Shown: positions 1,985 through 37,518 of the stretch, piece after piece | How positions within the stretch are numbered: the stretch's first letter is position 1 | Layout of the letters: every line of letters begins with the position of its first letter | From: a virus | Taxonomy: Duplodnaviria; Caudoviricetes | Length of the DNA stretch: 64,000 bases | Direction: 5' to 3' (one strand) | IMG/VR virus record: IMGVR_UViG_3300028364_000013 | The notes under the pieces: model-generated | What the model was told of the DNA's origin: nothing | What the model saw: the letters and a program-made list of their open reading frames with translations, nothing else | Databases searched by the model: none | Translations under genes and position numbers: made by a program

Positions 1985-2940
1985 TGGTTTTAAAAGCCTG
2001 AGTTTACAGCATTTATTAGCGTCCTTTAATGACCTTACCCACATCATCTTGCGGTTAATCAATGTATCCACGCACCCTTTCAGGTGGTATACGCCAGTCT
2101 CGATACCTATGGGGTATCATTCCTATCGTGCAATCTAACTCTGTATTTTCCACCTACACTATCTTGCCAGACATATGCGAGCTTTCGTTACAATCGACAC
2201 CCACCTTGCGAGGATGAATGACTCCCTGATTCTGCCGAAGCATCCAGGGTCTGAGAGACCTTTTAATATACACGCCCATGAGACTTTCACTTTTTTTCTG
2301 TTTATAGTAAAAACCAGCCATGCCAAGGCTAATATATACTGCATGAGATATACAGTACGAAGAGACGTGCCCACAGGAGTGGTTTCATAACTTTTTGGTT
2401 ACAAAATGCCACACGCCTCTCTGTTAGTCTATGCTGACCAACAATTAAACCCGAATTACTTTCTACGAATAGTTAAGTAACCAAATCCAAATGAGATGAA
2501 GCCCTTGCGTTTCTTACACGCTCGAACAACACAACTAAGCTTTTCCTTTTCATCAGCCGAAGCCAACTTTTTTTGCAAAATTTCTAATGCTCAACTACCA
2601 TTTTTAATCTCATGATAGTTTACCTTGTCCAGGTAAGTACTCACTTATTGCATAGGTGTCCAACAGAATAAATTCTGAAGGCGAGGGTGACACCCCCTTT
2701 TATAGCTTGTTACCAAACTTTATCTTCCCACAAGGGGCTTGCAATGATTTTCATCACCACGAGACTCTACACAGCCTCAAAATGATTGTTATTTGAATTG
2801 TAAAAGCTGGTTCATGTTACATAACCAATTTAAAAGCGAAGGACTCTGCTATATTTCATACAGTTGAATGTTTGTCCCATTCTCACTTTCCTCACTTACT
2901 CTTACTGTCGAATGGACCTAAACATTTAGACCAATAACAA
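1985..2940 (-). ncRNA. Large structured ncRNA of about 950 nt, GOLLD-like
   Basis: No credible ORF, GC higher than flanks, many short hairpins with GNRA/UUCG loops, own promoter and terminator. 3' part (AGTGTAGG...AGACTGGC...GTGGA...CTCAGGCTTTT) recalls GOLLD 3' domains from memory. Confidence 0.6.
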
Positions 2941-3690: not shown

Positions 3691-3742
3691 AACCTATCTG
3701 TTTAAAGATAAATAGTACAAAAAAGTACAAAATCGACTAAGG

Positions 3743-3813
3743 GAATCCATACGGGATTCGAACCCGTGCCTCCTGCCGAAAGGCAAGCGCTCTATCCGCT
3801 GAGCTAATGGACA
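3743..3813 (-). ncRNA. tRNA-like RNA whose anticodon loop is a 4-6 nt loop
   Basis: Normal D arm (GCTC..GAGC) and T arm (ACGGG-TTCGAAT-CCCGT); anticodon arm CTTGCC-TTTC-GGCAGG. Confidence 0.6.
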
Positions 3814-3897: not shown

Positions 3898-3997
3898 TGG
3901 CGAAGGGAGGATTCGAAACCTCCGACCCCCAATGCTGTCCATTCTTTCACAAGAACAACTAACACACTGGTGCTCTGACCAACTGAGCTACCTCGCC
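3898..3997 (-). ncRNA. tRNA-like RNA with a 30-nt structured insertion replacing the anticodon loop
   Basis: Acceptor GGCGAGG/CTTCGCC-A; stem CCAGTG/CATTGG encloses TGTTAGTTGTTCTT-GTGA-AAGAATGGACAG. Confidence 0.7.
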
Positions 3998-4426: not shown

Positions 4427-4865
4427 GATAATATCTTTTTTAGTTAGTATTAGACTTTTCCTAAAATATTATCGCTTCCTTATTTAAAGTTTGAAGAAAT
4501 ACGCTTCAGCAACAACTTGGTCTTCTGTTTGAGCGCAACGTTAATTACAAGCAAATCGTAATACACCTTGTTATTGCTGAATATTTTTAATTTTCAATAT
4601 GTCAATGAACTTTTAGAACCGTTGTTCTAAAAAAACAAAACGCTTTGAAAGATGTAACCTTAGTCCCTTCTGCCCTATTCTGGCGGGAGCCTGAGAATGT
4701 GTTCTTATGGTACAGTCCATCGGCCTTAGTCACTCTATCGTGAGCTTTTCTTAATCTCGTCACCGAGGTATTTCGTTTTGTTTTCTGTTTCTTTATACGG
4801 GCAAAGATATATAATGTTCTACTAATTACCAAAAGAATTTTAATCTTTTTTTAAACCACTATAAA

Positions 4866-7518: not shown

Positions 7519-8226
7519 ATGAATTTAGTAGAACAGCTGGCTAAAATATTAAAACCAATACTATCTGAAGAATTGGAACCAGAGGGCGCTTCATACAAAT
7601 CTACTCTTAATAGAATATCTGAATTGTCAGATGAGATTAATGATTTGATTGACGAATCGGATGACCTACCTTCTTGGATTCAAGATAAGATTACAATAGC
7701 AAATCACAATATGGATGCTATTCTTGGTTATTTTAAATCTCAAGAACTTGACGAAGAGTCAAAAGGTCTTTGGGCAAATATTCACGCCAAGAGAAAAAGA
7801 GGAGAATCTCCTGCTAAAAAAGGAGAAAAAGATTATCCAGATAAAAAATCATGGGACAAAGCTTCTAAGTCAGAATCTCTTTCAGAAGAAGAATATAATG
7901 AAGCATGTTCAATAATGGAAAGAGTATCTTTCATGTCTGAAGGAGATAAGTTCGGCTTTAAAGAGATTGATGCTCCAGAATTAAATGAAGCTGAATACCA
8001 AGGTAGAAAAGTTGAGCTGGGAAAACCTACAGCAGGTGATGTCAAAAAATTTAAAGTATACGTTAAGAATGATAAAGGAAACGTAGTTAAAGTAAACTTT
8101 GGACAAAAGGGTGTTAGAATTAAAAAAAATAACCCAGAAAGAAGAAAGTCATTTAGAGCAAGACACAACTGTGAAAACCCAGGACCAAGATGGAAGCCGA
8201 GATATTGGTCTTGTAAAAAATGGTAA
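7519..8226 (+). CDS. Modular late protein typical of large myophage virion regions
   Basis: Modules GLWANIHAKRKRGE and EAEYQGRKV...VNFGQ...RKSFRARHNC...RYWSCKKW separated by LxE motifs. Confidence 0.7.
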   Translation: MNLVEQLAKILKPILSEELEPEGASYKSTLNRISELSDEINDLIDESDDLPSWIQDKITIANHNMDAILGYFKSQELDEESKGLWANIHAKRKRGESPAKKGEKDYPDKKSWDKASKSESLSEEEYNEACSIMERVSFMSEGDKFGFKEIDAPELNEAEYQGRKVELGKPTAGDVKKFKVYVKNDKGNVVKVNFGQKGVRIKKNNPERRKSFRARHNCENPGPRWKPRYWSCKKW

Positions 8227-8227
8227 A

Positions 8228-8927
8228 ATGAAAAAAGTAATCTGCAAAAATTGTGATTGGAAATGGGATATAGAAAAGGATGACAAAAACCCTTACTTAT
8301 GTCACAAATGTGGGTACGATAATAAGAAAGATAAATTTGACTACAAAGCTCTTAATAAATGGAAGAGTGATAATGGAATCAAAGAATATATAATAGACAT
8401 CAGAAAAATAATACAGGAAGAATTTGAAAAAATTTTTAAAATTGATTATCCATACCATAAAATCGAAAAGCTAGTAGATTATTATAAGGAAGAGTTTGAT
8501 GATTATATGGATAAACAAGGGTGGAATATATTTCAATCCGATTCACCTTCGCTTTTATGATAAATATAATACTGATGGTGATTATTTTTGGCAAATTCAA
8601 GTTGTAGATGAGCCATATGGAGAAGCTGGATTCTATGACCAAGATAAAAATGCTGTTATTGGAATTTCTACAGACCAAGAAGCTATAGGGCTTGCTAGAA
8701 AAACAGGCCTCATGGTTGATGATGATGGAGTTGTGTTTGGATTTCAAGGACATTCACTTTTATCTGAAGAAATTAACTTGCCGATAGAAATTGGTGATGA
8801 AATTTTAACTGGACGATTCAAAAACAAGAAGACTAAAATTAAATCTATTGATAAAAACGATAAGGGCGACTTAACAATTAATGATAAGCCTGCTCTTAAG
8901 TTTAGAATACCTAAAAATACAAAATAG
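8228..8927 (+). CDS. Zn-ribbon-containing hypothetical protein, probably one gene split by a frameshift near 8520
   Basis: CKNCDWKW..CHKCG; overlapping ORFs 8228-8560 and 8496-8927 each look natural on one side of the junction. Confidence 0.5.
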
Positions 8928-8984
8928 AATTAAACAATCCTACCAAAATCTCTTTTACCAACTTTCATTATTTGACTCCGCATG

Positions 8985-9058
8985 TACCGATGAAGGGTTT
9001 CGAACCCTAAGCCTTATCCTTATGAGGGATACGTACTAACCTATTATACGACATCGGC
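8985..9058 (-). tRNA. tRNA-Met or Ile2 (CAT)
   Basis: Cloverleaf; TATCC-CTCATAA-GGATA. Confidence 0.85.
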
Positions 9059-9093
9059 ATGTGATGGATTGATAGCTCCATCGGGCATTTTCC

Positions 9094-10181
9094 TTATGAG
9101 AATCCATTGTTCTTCTTCCACTGCTCATGCTTTTGCTCAACACTATACATGAAAGAACCTCCTGGAATTACCTTCGCATCTGGGAATCCGTTTTCTGTTG
9201 TCAAAACAGATTCTGATTCTTTTATTGCACCAGTAAACTTTCCAGCACCTTTCTTATTTTCAATATTACCTGTTGAAGGATTGTATTAAAATTAATTTTT
9301 ACTTTTTTTAGTTTATTTATTAATAAACCAAATATGAAACCTAAATATACAAACGAACAACTTAAACATGCTAAGTCTTTTGATAAATTACCATTAGAAT
9401 GTTATGAATGTAATAAAGATTTTTTTATAGCAAAGACGCACATCAAAGATGCTAAAAATCCAAATTGCAAAAGAACTGGTGAATTTTGCTCAAAACAATG
9501 TTTGTCTTTATCAAAAAAAACAAAAGCTAAATATAATTGTCATAACTGCGGAAAAGAATGTGAAAAAAAGATTTCTCAAATAAAACTATCAAAATCAGGT
9601 TATAATTTTTGCTCAAGGAGCTGCACATCATCTTATCATATGAAAAACAAAAAATACGGCACAAATAGGTCTAAATTAGAACAGTGGATTGAAATTCAAT
9701 TAACAAAATTATACCCAAATCTTAAAATATCTTATAATGACAGGCAAATTTTAAATCCTTTGGAATTAGATATATTTATCCCAGAATTGTCAATAGCATT
9801 TGAATTAAACGGCATTTTTCATTATGAACCCATATTTGGACCTGAAAAGCTAAATAAAACTCAAACTAAAGATTTCAACAAACACAAACTTTGCTTTGAT
9901 AAAAGGGTGGATTTATGTGTAATTGACACATCAAGTCAAAAATATTTTAAAGAACAGACATCTAATAAGTTTTTAAATATAATTATAAAAATTATTCAAG
10001 AAAGATTTTAATTCTATGTAACTTATTTGAACAAATAATCCGTTCTAACACCACCCTTAGGCTCAATAAACTCTACCATATAAGACTGTTCAGTTCCATC
10101 ATTCATATGAACAATCAAGTTACCAGTTTCATCTCGGTTCACTAAAAAATTCTTTCTCACCTCTTCTCTCTTGTCTTTCAT
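9094..10181 (-). pseudogene. Conserved jumbo-phage hypothetical gene split by an antisense endonuclease insertion
   Basis: N-half MKDKREEVRKNFLVNRDETG...VEFIEPKGGVRTD (10181-10030); C-half YNPSTG...FTGAIKESESVLTTENGF... (9290-9094). Confidence 0.6.
9334..10011 (+). CDS. Zn-finger plus PD-(D/E)xK (Vsr/DUF559-like) putative homing endonuclease
   Basis: CxxC repeats, FCSRSC, ELDIFIPELSIAFELNGIFHY; paralog of 34815-35516. Confidence 0.8.
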   Translation: MKPKYTNEQLKHAKSFDKLPLECYECNKDFFIAKTHIKDAKNPNCKRTGEFCSKQCLSLSKKTKAKYNCHNCGKECEKKISQIKLSKSGYNFCSRSCTSSYHMKNKKYGTNRSKLEQWIEIQLTKLYPNLKISYNDRQILNPLELDIFIPELSIAFELNGIFHYEPIFGPEKLNKTQTKDFNKHKLCFDKRVDLCVIDTSSQKYFKEQTSNKFLNIIIKIIQERF

Positions 10182-10227
10182 GACTTTTGTTTTTAAAATT
10201 ATATTTTATTTCATTATCGAACAAATG

Positions 10228-10301
10228 AGCAGGTAGACGGGATTGAACCGTCTCTATTCCAGATTGGAAATCTGGCGCACCACCATTTATGCGTTACCTG
10301 C
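10228..10301 (-). tRNA. tRNA-Gly (TCC)
   Basis: GCAGGTA/TACCTGC-T; CCAGA-TTTCCAA-TCTGG. Confidence 0.9.
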
Positions 10302-10306
10302 GTTTG

Positions 10307-10461
10307 TGGACATGGGAGGAATTAAACCCAAGACGTAAATCTCGCTTACTTTGCTCCTGAAATGACTAATGCGCACTTATCAATTCACTCACGTTTCAAC
10401 CCTTAGCTTTCTTAGCACCAACACCAAAGTTGGGACGGTTCATCTCACCGCAAGCATATCC
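10307..10461 (-). ncRNA. 155-nt RNA closed by a tRNA-like acceptor stem
   Basis: 5' GGATATG pairs with 3' CATGTCC-A, preceded by a degenerate T arm; sits between tRNAs. Confidence 0.4.
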
Positions 10462-10496
10462 ATATTTGCCTATTTATAGTCGTAGCAAGGACTTTG

Positions 10497-10569
10497 AGCG
10501 AAATGTGGGAATCGAACCCCGTCTTCTCCTTGGAAGGGAGACGCTTTCAGCCATTAAGCTACATCTCGC
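10497..10569 (-). tRNA. tRNA-Gly (TCC), atypical acceptor/T stems
   Basis: TCTCC-CTTCCAA-GGAGA; T73. Confidence 0.8.
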
Positions 10570-10774
10570 ATATGGAGTCATTTATACACAGCTCCTGAGT
10601 GTTTATTTTACTTATTAAGATTTTTTAATTTATCTTTCTTATTGTCCTCTTGGGTAATTCTTAATCTTGCTGCGAAGTCCATTTGTGAAATTAGTTTTTT
10701 AATCCTATCAGGGTCTTCATTTTCTTTATTTTTCATAGTTTGGTTTTTAACAATATTATAGCCTTCAACTTTTG

Positions 10775-10858
10775 TGGGGGTGGTTGGATTCGAACCAACT
10801 CAGACCTATGCCAATGGTGTTACAGACCATCCCAACTCTCCAACTTTGGCGCACCCCC
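10775..10858 (-). tRNA. tRNA-Tyr (GTA)
   Basis: ATGGT-CTGTAAC-ACCAT, long variable arm. Confidence 0.9.
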
Positions 10859-10984
10859 AGTTTACGAAATTTCTTTTATTTTCAGTTTGCGGATTTCGTA
10901 ATCCCATTTCTGCTATTCTTAATTTGTCAGGGAACAAAGCACTGACAAACGTCTTGTCTGAATTGTAAAATTCATTTCCCTTAG

Positions 10985-11057
10985 TGGAGGTGGTCGAAAT
11001 CGAATCGACCTCAGGAACATTGCAAATGTTTCTCGCCAGCCTTGGACATGCACCCCC
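10985..11057 (-). tRNA. tRNA-Ala (TGC)
   Basis: Loop TTTGCAA; G3:U70 and A73. Confidence 0.85.
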
Positions 11058-11196
11058 ATTGCGCTATGGTGGAAAGTACTTTCCTATGGTTACCATAACT
11101 TATTTATCCGCTTTTTGTGGAGAAATAGGGAGTTTAACCCAGTTCAGTCGCTCCGCTAAGCTGTTACACAACATTAACTGAATACTTAAATCTCCA

Positions 11197-11700
11197 TTAT
11201 TTATTATTTTTCATAATTTCAAAGTACTTCTGATTCCTCAATCTTTTTTTCTTGTCGATTCTATTTCTAAAATCTTTAAGAAGAGGTTCTGGAATCTGGA
11301 TGCCCCTCTTTTGGAACTCTCCTAATATTTCTTCCTCTGTAAATGTCCAGTCGCAAATTCCATCGCTCCACTGGTCCACCCAAAGACCAAAACTTCTTTT
11401 TCCACTCATTACAGCTTTGACGATATTCGGATGTCTTGTCCTTATCACTGTATTCCTCTTGATGTCTCCGTTTTCAACTTGCCTAAAGCAATATTTACCT
11501 TCTTCACCATTTGGGTCAAACTCAGTTTCTATTATTGAGCCTGAGAATTCTAATAACCCACTTCTATAGCTCTTAAGAAAAAATATAAACATTTCATTGA
11601 AGTTATCAGAATATTTTCTAAGCTTCCTGTTTTTTCTACTTCCTACTTTCTTTTTTTGCTCATCAAGCCTACTTAACTTCTGGCTCCCAAGCGGTGTTCT
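11197..11700 (-). CDS. Hypothetical protein (true start uncertain)
   Basis: ORF-track start overlaps tRNA-Asp; body YSDNFNEMFIFFLKSY... looks natural. Confidence 0.6.
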   Translation of the reverse strand, partial: RTPLGSQKLSRLDEQKKKVGSRKNRKLRKYSDNFNEMFIFFLKSYRSGLLEFSGSIIETEFDPNGEEGKYCFRQVENGDIKRNTVIRTRHPNIVKAVMSGKRSFGLWVDQWSDGICDWTFTEEEILGEFQKRGIQIPEPLLKDFRNRIDKKKRLRNQKYFEIMKNNK

Positions 11701-11751
11701 CCTTGCTCTTTCATTTTTTCTAAATTTATAAATTAATTTAACATTACCCAG

Positions 11752-11824
11752 CGGTCCCGAACGGATTCGAACCGTCAACCATCTCGCAGACAACGAGCTA
11801 CACTACCAATTGTGCTACGGGACC
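11752..11824 (-). tRNA. tRNA-Asp (GTC)
   Basis: GGTCCCG/CGGGACC-G; loop TTGTCTG (unusual U37). Confidence 0.8.
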
Positions 11825-11830
11825 TTATTG

Positions 11831-11904
11831 TCTAAGTGACAGGGGTCGAACCTGCGGCCTGAGCGCCCCAAACGCCCCACTCTACCAAACTGAGCTACAC
11901 CTAG
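11831..11904 (-). tRNA. tRNA-Pro (TGG)
   Basis: C1-G72, loop TTTGGGG. Confidence 0.9.
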
Positions 11905-11912
11905 ATATTTTG

Positions 11913-11988
11913 CGGTCTATACGGTTTTCGAATCCGTCTGATATTCCTCCGTGACAGGGAGGTGGACACCCAAGCATCCCCATAGACC
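11913..11988 (-). tRNA. tRNA-Asp (GTC)
   Basis: CCTCC-CTGTCAC-GGAGG; G73. Confidence 0.85.
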
Positions 11989-11999
11989 ATTTTTTTAAG

Positions 12000-12075
12000 T
12001 CTGATGAGCTGGATTTGAACCAACGTGCTGCAATTTCCAAAATTGCCGAGATAAGCCTGACTCCTCTATCACCAG
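12000..12075 (-). tRNA. tRNA-Pro (TGG)
   Basis: GCAAT-TTTGGAA-ATTGC. Confidence 0.85.
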
Positions 12076-12152
12076 ATATTTTACTTTAATTTCCAAGATG
12101 TCAATTTTTTACTTTCGAAAGACTCAGTGACGTTTCACAAAAGTCTATAAAC

Positions 12153-12415
12153 AAAAAAAGCTCGGTCCTTTTTGGAACCGAGCTTTAAACTATTCGTTTA
12201 GATATTATATTATCAAACTTTAAGTTTATGCAAAACGATTCCGTCCCTGCTGCAATCATCTGCCGCTGGCGCCCCCATATAGCCCATCGGGTTAATTGAA
12301 GTGTTCTCGTTATATGTATAAACTTTTTCCATTTGAATTTGTTTCTCTTTTTTCTAAATAGCAGAAAATTTCTTTTTCCGCTTTCTTCTACGCAAATATA
12401 TAACATTTGTTCTAT
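12153..12415 (-). promoter_or_regulatory. Promoter, 39-aa leader ORF (12332-12213) and terminator (12153-12186): putative attenuator of the Pro/Asp/Ala/Tyr/Gly/Met tRNA cluster
   Basis: TATATTTG promoter at about 12392-12399; leader MEKVYTYNENTSINPMGYMGAPAADDCSRDGIVLHKLKV; hairpin AAAGCTCGGTTCC-AAAAA-GGACCGAGCTTT plus U tract. Confidence 0.7.
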
Positions 12416-12467
12416 TAAATCCAAATCTTTTTTAAAGAAATATTGAAAATAATTTTGAACCTCTTGA

Positions 12468-13101
12468 TTACCAGCAGTTTATCTCACGATAAAATTTTTC
12501 GAAATTTTTCATTTCTTGTATTGTGTAGCCGTATCTCTTTCTATTATGCTCTAAAGACTTCTTAATATCACCATCTTTATTCCTTAAAGTTGATGCCTTC
12601 CAATCAACAAGCATTTCAATTCTATCAAGTGGTTGCATTTCCTTTAGCAATAAGTACATCAGCAGGAGTCCATACAGCAACCATGTCAACACCTATTTTC
12701 TTACGTTTTCCAGTTTTAATAGTCTTACCATCAGAAGTAACTTTCACTACGTCTCTTGTTTCAGTGTATCCAGTATTATACTTAATAGAAGCATCTGTAT
12801 TCTCGCTTGCAGCGATGAAGTTAATTGCCTCTGGGTTATAAGTTGTTTCATCTGTGTTTACAGGGATTCCATTATCAGCAGCCCATTTTACAACGATATT
12901 CCAGTCACCATCTCTAATAACGGTAGCACATGTCATACCTCTTGCATTTTGAGGGTCTTGCTTAACAGATGGTGGAGCCATGAATTGGTCCTCACCTAAT
13001 GAACGTCCACATGAGTATATAATCTCAGCTGTGTAGTCATTACCTAATCTTGATAACTGTTCGTTAGCTCCTGCAAGCCATGCTGGACCATAATCACCCA
13101 A
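12468..13101 (-). pseudogene. Two gene fragments joined out of frame (unknown protein plus DUF5662-like C-terminus)
   Basis: KEMQPLDRIEMLVDWKASTLRNKDGDIKKS resembles the DUF5662 C-terminus but lacks its N-terminus. Confidence 0.45.
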
Positions 13102-13183
13102 TTGTTTATTTAATTAATTATTAGTTTAGCGACTACAAAATAAGCCAAAATTTACAACCTATGCAAATTTTAGCCTATATTTT

Positions 13184-13651
13184 TTAATACTTCATTGGAA
13201 AGTCTTCCAAATCTTGGTATACAATTATTTTACATGAATCATTTTCGATTACAATATCTAAGTGAGTTCTTACTTCAGTAGCATTAATTTCTGCTATATA
13301 AACAAGAGTCTTAATGCCATCTTCATCATACATTTTCTTAGGCTTACCAAGTTTGTATCCGAACTGCATTTTTTTATAGTGCTCAAGAATAACATCTTCA
13401 CCGTGTAGGTCAATGCTCATTTGAGAAGTAAACGCCAGCATAGTTTCATACTCGCCTTGTATATACAAAGTTTGGAAGAAGTTTCCAAAATCGCTTCCAT
13501 ATATCAAAGCAGGATTAGAAAAAGGTTTATTTTCTAACTCAGAAGAGCTATCTTTAGCTGTAACCAATGGACCTGGGCCTGGCTTTATTTCAAGCTCATC
13601 ACATGACACAGTGATTAAACAGACTAATAATATGTAAATATAGTTTCTCAT
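13184..13651 (-). CDS. Lipoprotein
   Basis: Lipobox-like MRNYIYILLVCLITVS-CD. Confidence 0.7.
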   Translation of the reverse strand: MRNYIYILLVCLITVSCDELEIKPGPGPLVTAKDSSSELENKPFSNPALIYGSDFGNFFQTLYIQGEYETMLAFTSQMSIDLHGEDVILEHYKKMQFGYKLGKPKKMYDEDGIKTLVYIAEINATEVRTHLDIVIENDSCKIIVYQDLEDFPMKY

Positions 13652-13712
13652 AATATTATCTTGTACGTATAAAAGTTAAAAAATGTTTCAAATTTTTATA
13701 GAAAAATACTAA

Positions 13713-14347
13713 ATGTCTATTAAACTCAACATATTAGAGTCTAAAAAACTATTAACTATCTAATGTCTGATGTTGATTTTAAGGAAGAGTTTGCTGTAGA
13801 GTATAGCTCTATATTTGAGAAGCACTTAAGAAAACTATTGAATGACGGGCCTATACTTAAGCAAGCTTGCAAGGATAGGTTTGGTAAGTTACTTGAACCA
13901 GATGAAGAGAAAGAGCCTGAGTACCCAGAATCGGGTTCTGGCGAAAACGTTGCTCCAGGACCAATCTTGTCAGACTCTAAAGAAGTAGTTGTGTATACTG
14001 GCCCAAAAACAGAAAACAAGGAACCAGCTTTGCTATTGGTGGGAGACCCTGAAAAAGTAAAACACCTATAAAGAAAAATTGTTCAAAAGACACATCCAGA
14101 CAAAGTGAATAGCGATGCGCTAAATGAACTTTACTATAAAGCTACAAAAGCTAATAAGTCGAAAGACCTTCTAGCTCTATACTCTATTTGTAATGAGCTT
14201 GGAATTAAGTTCAATATTACTGATAAAGAAATTGCTATAATTAAGAACAGACTTCTTGCGATAAAACAACAACAAGAAAGGTTTGAGAAAAGCCACTTAT
14301 GGTTATGGGCAAACATAGAAGATGATAAACAAAAAAGGAAATACTAA
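13713..14347 (+). pseudogene. J-domain-like (HPD) protein interrupted by a frameshift and an in-frame TAA (14069-14071)
   Basis: KHL*RKIVQKTHPDKV, where LYRKI...HPDK is expected. Confidence 0.55.
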
Positions 14348-27713: not shown

Positions 27714-27726
27714 GTATTTTTTGGCA

Positions 27727-27877
27727 CAAAAAAAACCCTAATTCAAAAAGAACCAGGGTTTCAAATATTTTTATAACAGTATCGTTACATAACATTTTGA
27801 CATACCAGTGTTCTTTCCGTAGCTCTATTCGAACTCGAACTCCATCTGGACCATCTATTTGTTATTACTGTTTTCAT
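27727..27877 (-). promoter_or_regulatory. 30-aa leader ORF (27877-27785) and terminator (27727-27762): putative attenuator of the Ser/Arg/Trp tRNA cluster
   Basis: MKTVITNRWSRWSSSSNRATERTLVCQNVM; hairpin AAACCCTGGTTC-TTTTT-GAATTAGGGTTT plus U tract; TAGATTTG promoter at about 28040-28047. Confidence 0.7.
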
Positions 27878-37385: not shown

Positions 37386-37518
37386 AACTTGTTTTTATAA
37401 TTTGTTTCTTTCAATTATATATACGCAAATATAAGACAAAATGTTCTATAAATGCAAATCTTTTTTAATCTTTTTTTACAAATCCCTTATTTTACTGGGA
37501 CTGTAGAGTAAAATTTTT

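Follow-up and report, generated by a model that had tools for sequence, protein, structure and literature searches.

Sequence evidence for a probable multivalent leader-peptide attenuator ahead of a phage tRNA operon

Leader-peptide attenuators of the trpL and hisL type (Rfam Trp_leader and His_leader) have leaders of 14-40 codons, sense a single amino acid and control enzymes; a ribosome that stalls at the cognate codons frees an antiterminator, and in trpL a ribosome at the stop codon directly masks region 2. The thrL leader (Thr and Ile) and the ilvL leader of ilvGMEDA (Ile, Leu and Val) precede biosynthetic enzymes and consist of a short ORF between a promoter and an intrinsic terminator, with regulatory codons for several amino acids, rare cognate codons among them, and with mutually exclusive antiterminator and terminator pairings that are set by the position of the ribosome. 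Rare cognate codons, such as the CUA codons of leuL, are a trait of sensitive leader-peptide attenuators. The T-box leaders of synthetase and amino-acid genes in Firmicutes also serve the translation supply chain and sense the state of a tRNA through a choice between antiterminator and terminator, but they bind the uncharged tRNA directly and without translation, use one specifier codon and precede protein genes. Finally, leader-peptide attenuation of genes for the translation apparatus has been described for the pheM leader of pheST and for a His-codon leader upstream of the hisS and hisZ paralogs in bacilli (PMC2965389). These leaders are cellular, respond to one amino acid and control protein genes, namely synthetases.

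Phage tRNA genes are usually seen as fixed patches for codon usage or as a reserve against defences that cleave tRNAs. Here we describe a locus in the virus record IMGVR_UViG_3300028364_000013, referred to as unit 1, that on the strength of its sequence is very likely a multivalent ribosome-mediated (leader-peptide) transcription attenuator gating a phage tRNA operon; it would sample six amino acids and in this resemble thrL or ilvL. The window, by which we mean the whole 64,000-nt stretch of DNA that was analyzed, belongs to a record of 117 kb that is estimated to be 53% complete, and the virus is therefore a jumbo phage. Phages of Tenacibaculum and Cellulophaga have the ribonucleotide reductases most similar to its own (50-52% identity), the DNA runs containing the stretch are lake and salt-lake metagenomes, and the promoter motif together with the missing Shine-Dalgarno sequence points to a host in the Bacteroidota.

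Compared with the described systems, the phage units would share with thrL and ilvL the layout, the mixture of regulatory and rare codons and the ribosome-set alternative pairings, with trpL and hisL the stalling logic and a similar leader length, with T-boxes the sensing of tRNA state in the translation supply chain, and with the pheM and hisS/hisZ leaders the control of the translation apparatus instead of biosynthesis. They differ in that the genes behind them encode tRNAs, six or seven amino acids are sampled, the carrier is a phage, the promoters are of the Bacteroidota type with no Shine-Dalgarno sequence following, and the antiterminator strand sits upstream of the stop codon. Moreover, no sequence similarity to the known leaders was detected: neither the Rfam leader families (Trp_leader, His_leader, Thr_leader, Leu_leader and others) nor the T-box (RF00230) gave a hit at the gathering threshold in the window or at an E-value of 1 in 8000-14000, and the hits over the unit 1 terminator to L20_leader (22 bits) and GibS (33 bits) are at chance level. 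A full-text literature search, which included an attenuator survey (PMC2965389), returned no published description of leader-peptide control of tRNA genes, and this agrees with an earlier reading of the DNA from its letters alone (the first-pass annotation), whose author knew of none for phage tRNA arrays. The class of mechanism, classical multivalent leader-peptide attenuation, is already known; what differs is the tRNA product, the viral carrier, the feedback on tRNA supply and the sampling of six or seven amino acids.

Anatomy and codon content of the leader locus

All parts of unit 1, like every gene in this region of the window, lie on the minus strand, in the order promoter, ORF, terminator and tRNA cluster (Table 1), just as the first-pass annotation had laid them out. 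The promoter has the motif TTTG ... TAnnTTTG, which we take to be the Bacteroidota promoter consensus, so that the promoter proposed earlier is present but is of this type and not of the sigma-70 type. The promoter block occurs in four copies in the genome, and two of the other copies head the same leader/terminator/tRNA layout; the block of unit 1 is 88% identical over 130 nt to the copy ahead of unit 3, and partial copies lie at window positions 28037-28072 and 37422-37458. On the minus strand, a search for the full TTTG/TAnnTTTG consensus, the promoter type covered here, found none between the terminator and the tRNAs and none inside clusters 1 and 2. The motifs AAAAGAA ... CTATTTAGAA in the 5' leader are common to unit 1, unit 3 and the units of a related contig, G001, in an alignment, and a pattern made from these motifs matched only relatives in viral and metagenome collections. 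The terminator follows the ORF after 26 nt and has a stem of 12 pairs, 6 of them G-C, with a loop of 6 nt in the scan or 5 nt if the top C-G pair is counted. A 79-codon ORF with a TTG start (12185-12424, minus strand) was dismissed as spurious, its start falling inside the promoter. Upstream of the leader, a 158-codon ORF (window 12468-13101, minus strand) equals the N-terminal part of a much longer G001 protein (L005 10001-11355); because it is truncated here and followed by a fragment resembling the C-terminal part of DUF5662, the sequence suggests a rearrangement immediately upstream of the leader promoter.

Table 1. Positions in the window of the features of unit 1, its tRNA cluster and unit 2.
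Feature	Position	Strand	Details or basis
Promoter, Bacteroidota type	12393..12425	-	-33 TTTG 12425..12422; -7 TATATTTG 12400..12393
5' untranslated leader	12333..12392	-	A-rich, without Shine-Dalgarno
Leader ORF, 39 codons + TGA, ATG start	12213..12332	-	ORF list; 42-codon ortholog in G001 at the same position
Sensor block, codons 15-26	12255..12290	-	P M G Y M G A P A A D D
Predicted antiterminator 5' strand, ORF codons 31-35	12228..12242	-	GGAATCG and three more pairing bases; RNAfold
Intrinsic terminator	12157..12186	-	5' arm 12186..12174, loop 12173..12169, 3' arm 12168..12157, U tract 12156..12150
Spacer, terminator to first tRNA, 81 nt	12076..12156	-	sequence
tRNA cluster, nine tRNA genes	8984..12075	-	ARAGORN and Rfam
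Pro-UGG	12075..11999	-	ARAGORN default
Asp-GUC	11988..11912	-	ARAGORN default
Pro-UGG	11904..11830	-	ARAGORN default
Asp-GUC	11824..11751	-	ARAGORN default
Ala-UGC	11057..10984	-	ARAGORN relaxed threshold only
Tyr-GUA	10858..10774	-	ARAGORN default
Gly-UCC	10569..10496	-	ARAGORN default
Gly-UCC	10301..10227	-	ARAGORN default
CAU tRNA	9058..8984	-	ARAGORN default
Unit 2 promoter	28072-28037	-	partial promoter-block copy
Unit 2 leader ORF, 30 codons	27874..27782	-	core RWSRWSSSS (R W S R W S S S S N R)
Unit 2 terminator	about 27760-27725	-	downstream of leader ORF

Behind the terminator, eight of the tRNA genes are found by ARAGORN at its default and Ala-UGC at a relaxed threshold. The acceptor stem of the latter is well formed and includes the G3:U70 alanine identity pair, and the tRNA set first proposed, Ala-UGC included, is borne out. 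Other RNA elements were noted elsewhere in the window. A GOLLD RNA at 1995-2421 (minus strand; Rfam RF02032) scores 169 bits and so exceeds the gathering score; two odd tRNA genes (3741-3813 and 3898-3997) are located some 1.3 kb upstream of it, and Rfam tRNAs with long insertions are present at 34148-34295 and 3898-3997. At 34686-34758 (minus strand) a tRNA with a CUA anticodon, of the amber suppressor type, adjoins a Lys-CUU gene. A promoter of the same class (TAGAAC ... TATCTTTG) at 4640-4809 (minus strand) is followed by about 150 nt that are richer in G+C, contain no ORF, end in a T tract and have no Rfam hit, and may represent an unclassified small RNA.

The sensor block of the leader reads CCG ATG GGC TAT ATG GGG GCG CCA GCG GCA GAT GAT, codon for codon as in the first-pass annotation, and all 12 of its residues fall in the set A, D, G, M, P, Y of the cluster behind it. 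This set makes up 0.288 of the residues in the long ORFs of the phage, and a 12-residue window composed entirely of it occurs once among the 121,551 stop-free windows in the six frames of the 117-kb record, namely in the unit 1 leader. At the level of anticodons, the match under ordinary wobble comprises 11 of 12 codons, because Gly-UCC cannot read GGC under strict wobble; the original claim that the codons match the tRNA set therefore holds for every residue but fails for this one codon. In addition, the sensor is enriched in codons that are rare in the phage (CCG 0.05, GGC 0.09, GGG 0.10 and GCG 0.10 of their synonymous families), and across the sensors of the different units the codons CCG, GGC, GGG, GCG, TCC, TCG and ACG amount to 3-10% in the phage's own genes.

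Predicted alternative pairings of the leader RNA

Using RNAfold, we folded seven units under a ribosome mask, with the transcript ending at the terminator loop. In unit 1, GGAATCG (12242..12236) and CGGTTCC (12180..12174) form seven pairs, one of them G-U, to which three more are added, stacked on inner hairpins, and this pairing is the choice of RNAfold once the 3' arm of the terminator is withheld. With a ribosome on the sensor and no 3' arm, 10 of the 13 bases of the terminator 5' arm pair with 12228..12242 (dG -18.0), and when everything up to stop+14 is masked, none of them pairs with the antiterminator strand. The same holds across the seven folded units, in each of which the 5' arm pairs with ORF codons at about 20-35 when the ribosome is on the sensor and not under the stop+14 mask. 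Against 300 dinucleotide shuffles of the upstream part, the antiterminator fold beats at least 96% in six of the seven units. Unit 1 stands at 96.3%, its fold energy of -18.0 comparing with -12.5 +/- 2.9 for the shuffles, 3.7% of which are as good; in these models the antiterminator, short and marginal against shuffles, appears as the weakest part of unit 1. Its strand co-varies with the terminator arm, as GGAAUCG/CGGUUCC here, GGAGCGGGUU/AACCCGCUUC in G001 unit 1 and GGUCGAGCU/AGCUCGGCC in unit 3, and the terminators of these units are unrelated in sequence.

In all seven units, the antiterminator strand begins 9-15 nt downstream of the first base of the last sensor codon, a distance that roughly equals how far a ribosome with its A site on this codon extends on the 3' side, and the stop codon lies 23-39 nt before the terminator. 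When the full-length RNA is folded, the antiterminator is more stable than the terminator in unit 3. For unit 1, thermodynamics always favours the terminator once its 3' arm exists, and the switch of this unit must therefore be kinetic. Moreover, the unit 1 antiterminator strand is located 20-27 nt upstream of the stop codon, where a ribosome parked on the stop would leave it uncovered, and with a mask restricted to a 30-nt footprint, across which pairs may form, the thermodynamic model does not discriminate between ribosome positions. Of the antiterminator first proposed, GGAATCG with CGGTTCC, the pairing itself is thus reproduced by RNAfold, and its release on stalling alone is reproduced with the full mask but not with the footprint-only mask. 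A moving ribosome would, we suppose, cover codons 31-39 and melt the inner hairpins just as the 5' arm emerges, and the helix would be unable to close around it.

Put together, the proposed mechanism would run as follows. Transcription would begin at the Bacteroidota-type promoter, and a ribosome would translate the 39-codon leader while RNA polymerase nears the terminator. If charged tRNA for Pro, Met, Gly, Tyr, Ala or Asp is scarce, slow decoding in codons 15-26 would stall the ribosome and leave codons 31-35 bare to pair with the emerging 5' arm, so that no terminator hairpin would form and the polymerase would read through into the Pro, Asp, Ala, Tyr, Gly and Met tRNA genes. With fast decoding, the ribosome would cross codons 31-39 and melt the supporting hairpins, the terminator would form and transcription would stop. 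The outcome would be a negative feedback by which the phage replenishes exactly those tRNAs that translation lacks. This scheme presumes a translated ORF, an efficient terminator and read-through that responds to stalling. As to the nature of the tRNA depletion, the sequence speaks just of slow decoding of the sensor codons, and a role of host anticodon nucleases as the trigger is speculation.

Further units in this genome and in related phages

The layout of unit 1 is found three times in this genome, with three leader compositions that each fit their own tRNA cluster and not the others. Unit 2 precedes genes for Ser-UGA (two), Ser-GCU (two), Ser-GGA, Cys-GCA, Arg-UCU, Arg-CCU and a lower-scoring Trp-CCA, and the codons AGA, TCC, AGT, TCG and TGG of its leader fit the anticodons UCU, GGA, GCU, UGA and CCA, respectively. 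Unit 3, situated shortly beyond the window (locus L002 / L022), has the core NIHTTINNTICNKK (N I H T T I N N T I C N K K) ahead of tRNAs for Asn (two), His, Thr-GGU, Thr-UGU (two), Lys-CUU, Lys-UUU, Ile-GAU, CAU and Cys. Its His-GUG gene (L022 6110-6194, minus strand) carries a 10-nt insertion in the D-loop, escaped ARAGORN at its default and was recognized by eye; insertions of this type are present in several tRNAs of the phage. Across units 1, 2 and 3 the codon-level match is 11/12, 10/11 and 14/14. In a matrix of the three leaders against the three clusters, scored by the best 12-residue windows, the diagonal values are 10-12 and the off-diagonal values 2-7. The 14/14 run of unit 3 is unique in the genome; for the 9/9 run of unit 2, the 140,504 windows include four other loci. 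Unit 2 (27725-28072) has in addition a first small ORF of 37 codons which, judging from the conservation of its core LEALEGWMKQ as LECLEGWIRQ in a second related contig, G002, may encode a genuine small protein or serve as a further regulatory ORF. A candidate Cys leader, consisting of a 36-codon ORF and a terminator at L022 (G000:C1) 2826-2660 (minus strand), has weak evidence and was not counted as support, as it has just three Cys codons (C-x5-C-x2-C) and a protein gene lies between it and the two Cys tRNAs.

In a near-identity search, the locus had no match among GenBank phages, and the exact promoter pattern had none in IMG/VR. A looser promoter pattern gave seven chance matches and one true relative in IMG/VR, a tRNA-Ser-based pattern recovered G002 alone, and a metagenome scan added one further relative; the contigs from four lake and salt-lake DNA runs provided one informative variant and several short pieces. 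In Tenacibaculum phage pT24, the nearest cultured phage by ribonucleotide reductase, four tRNAs directly follow a protein gene, and a brief look revealed no obvious leader unit. Altogether there are eight units in four contigs, five of them orthologous units in three related contigs. The IMG/VR contigs G001 (101.7 kb) and G002 (95 kb) have 64% and 57% protein identity, respectively, and share neighbouring proteins with the phage described here, and the metagenome contig L021, which contains an ortholog of unit 3, is a closer relative than either.

In G001, unit 1 has the sensor AAPAMGDAGMGYAPDY (A A P A M G D A G M G Y A P D Y) ahead of Pro, Asp, Tyr, Ala, Gly and Met tRNAs and of an additional Glu tRNA that its leader does not sample, unit 2 has RWSWRSSSSSS ahead of Ser, Trp and Arg tRNAs, and unit 3 has TKKHTINKNTTIFNTNINKH (T K K H T I N K N T T I F N T N I N K H) ahead of Asn, His, Thr, Lys, Ile and Met tRNAs. 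Likewise, G002 unit 2 has WSSRWSRS ahead of Ser, Arg and Trp tRNAs. The first-pass annotation had made conservation of the leader in related phages a check on its proposal, and these relatives by descent retain the ORF in the same frame and at the same place with respect to the terminator, with the sensor residues permuted in order and all inside the tRNA set. Between L021 and unit 3, the sensor differs by six substitutions and one inserted codon, and all seven changes stay inside the tRNA set; the other 21 codons show two conservative changes. Selection therefore appears to act on the identity of the encoded amino acids and not on their order, as a decoding sensor predicts and unlike what is expected of a functional peptide. 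Because the orthologs share descent, the strongest independent evidence consists of the three sets in one genome and the set-preserving substitutions.

A further comparison comes from the salt-lake variant, which is 95% identical to unit 1. Its 120-nt ORF differs at just two places, by I13N and by a synonymous GCG-to-GCA change in the sensor, against eight changes in the 81-nt spacer behind the terminator, the most variable part of the locus. A hairpin in this spacer, seen in units 1 and 3, was discarded as a functional element, two of its pairs being broken in the variant. The variant also lacks 95 nt (window 11989-12085) that correspond to the first Pro-UGG gene, and the number of tRNA copies behind the putative attenuator therefore varies in nature.

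Competing explanations and consequences for phage tRNA supply

We considered three other explanations of the locus. Coupling to translation could be general instead of codon-specific, with the leader reporting ribosome availability in the manner of ermC or pyrBI and its composition a side effect. The geometry unlike that of trpL and the need for a kinetic switch are compatible with such coupling, and a ribosome slowed for whatever reason within codons 15-26 would have the same effect; but such coupling has no need for cluster-specific codon sets, for rare cognate codons or for set-preserving substitutions, and we consider it very unlikely. Highly improbable, in our judgement, is an independent small gene, encoding a 39-codon protein or a small RNA of about 230 nt with its own promoter and terminator, next to tRNAs that use an unrecognised promoter and with a codon match that is meaningless. 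The relatives have in common conserved N-terminal residues (M-K-V..T-Y) and portions of the C-terminal half, the strong unit 1 terminator, always the thermodynamic winner, suits a gene of its own, and there are weak, sub-threshold Rfam sRNA and leader hits over it (GibS 32.8 bits against a cut-off of 115). However, three compositions fitting three clusters, the genome-wide uniqueness of the windows, the permuted yet set-preserving sensor residues and the co-variation of antiterminator and terminator would all be left unexplained, and no full promoter consensus is found downstream of the terminator.

Finally, tRNAs might be sensed without a ribosome, the codon run pairing directly with their anticodons in a T-box-like or other RNA-RNA interaction. 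T-box leaders are known RNA elements that read tRNA through codon-anticodon pairing, the products regulated here are tRNAs, and the codon-level match of all three units is good. Against this, even at an E-value of 1 Rfam gave neither a T-box nor another riboswitch, the codons are in frame with the ATG and the stop in all eight units, the indel between close relatives is one whole codon, and the stop keeps its short distance to the terminator in the seven units measured. T-boxes are moreover rare outside Firmicutes, and we know of no precedent for a dozen different codons in a row pairing directly with tRNA, which leaves this explanation exceedingly improbable. For the trp-style attenuation put forward in the first-pass annotation, on the other hand, the sequence-level predictions that we tested were borne out, with the antiterminator of unit 1 a marginal case, and it is the reading we support.

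It is also likely, if somewhat less so than attenuation at unit 1 itself, that the leaders work as codon "checklists", in which every tRNA block stands behind a gating leader made up of codons for that same block and is transcribed on demand, giving a self-contained tRNA homeostat and an automatic counter to anticodon nucleases or host shut-off. Similarly likely is that the sampled codons would often be rare NNG codons, readable only by the U34 isoacceptors encoded in the block. Bacteroidota differ in translation initiation and promoters from the model systems in which attenuation was defined, and the units, if our reading is true, would be compact natural multi-input sensors of tRNA availability that work in this phylum. 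The same reading would also account for the sorting of the tRNA genes into separate blocks by amino acid, and would extend the textbook sensing of charged tRNA for amino-acid enzymes to tRNAs themselves and to viruses. The phage would gauge the speed of decoding codon by codon and replace just the missing tRNAs, and, should the checklist reading hold, this would be the first leader-peptide attenuation of tRNA genes and the first known translation-sensing feedback circuit in a virus.
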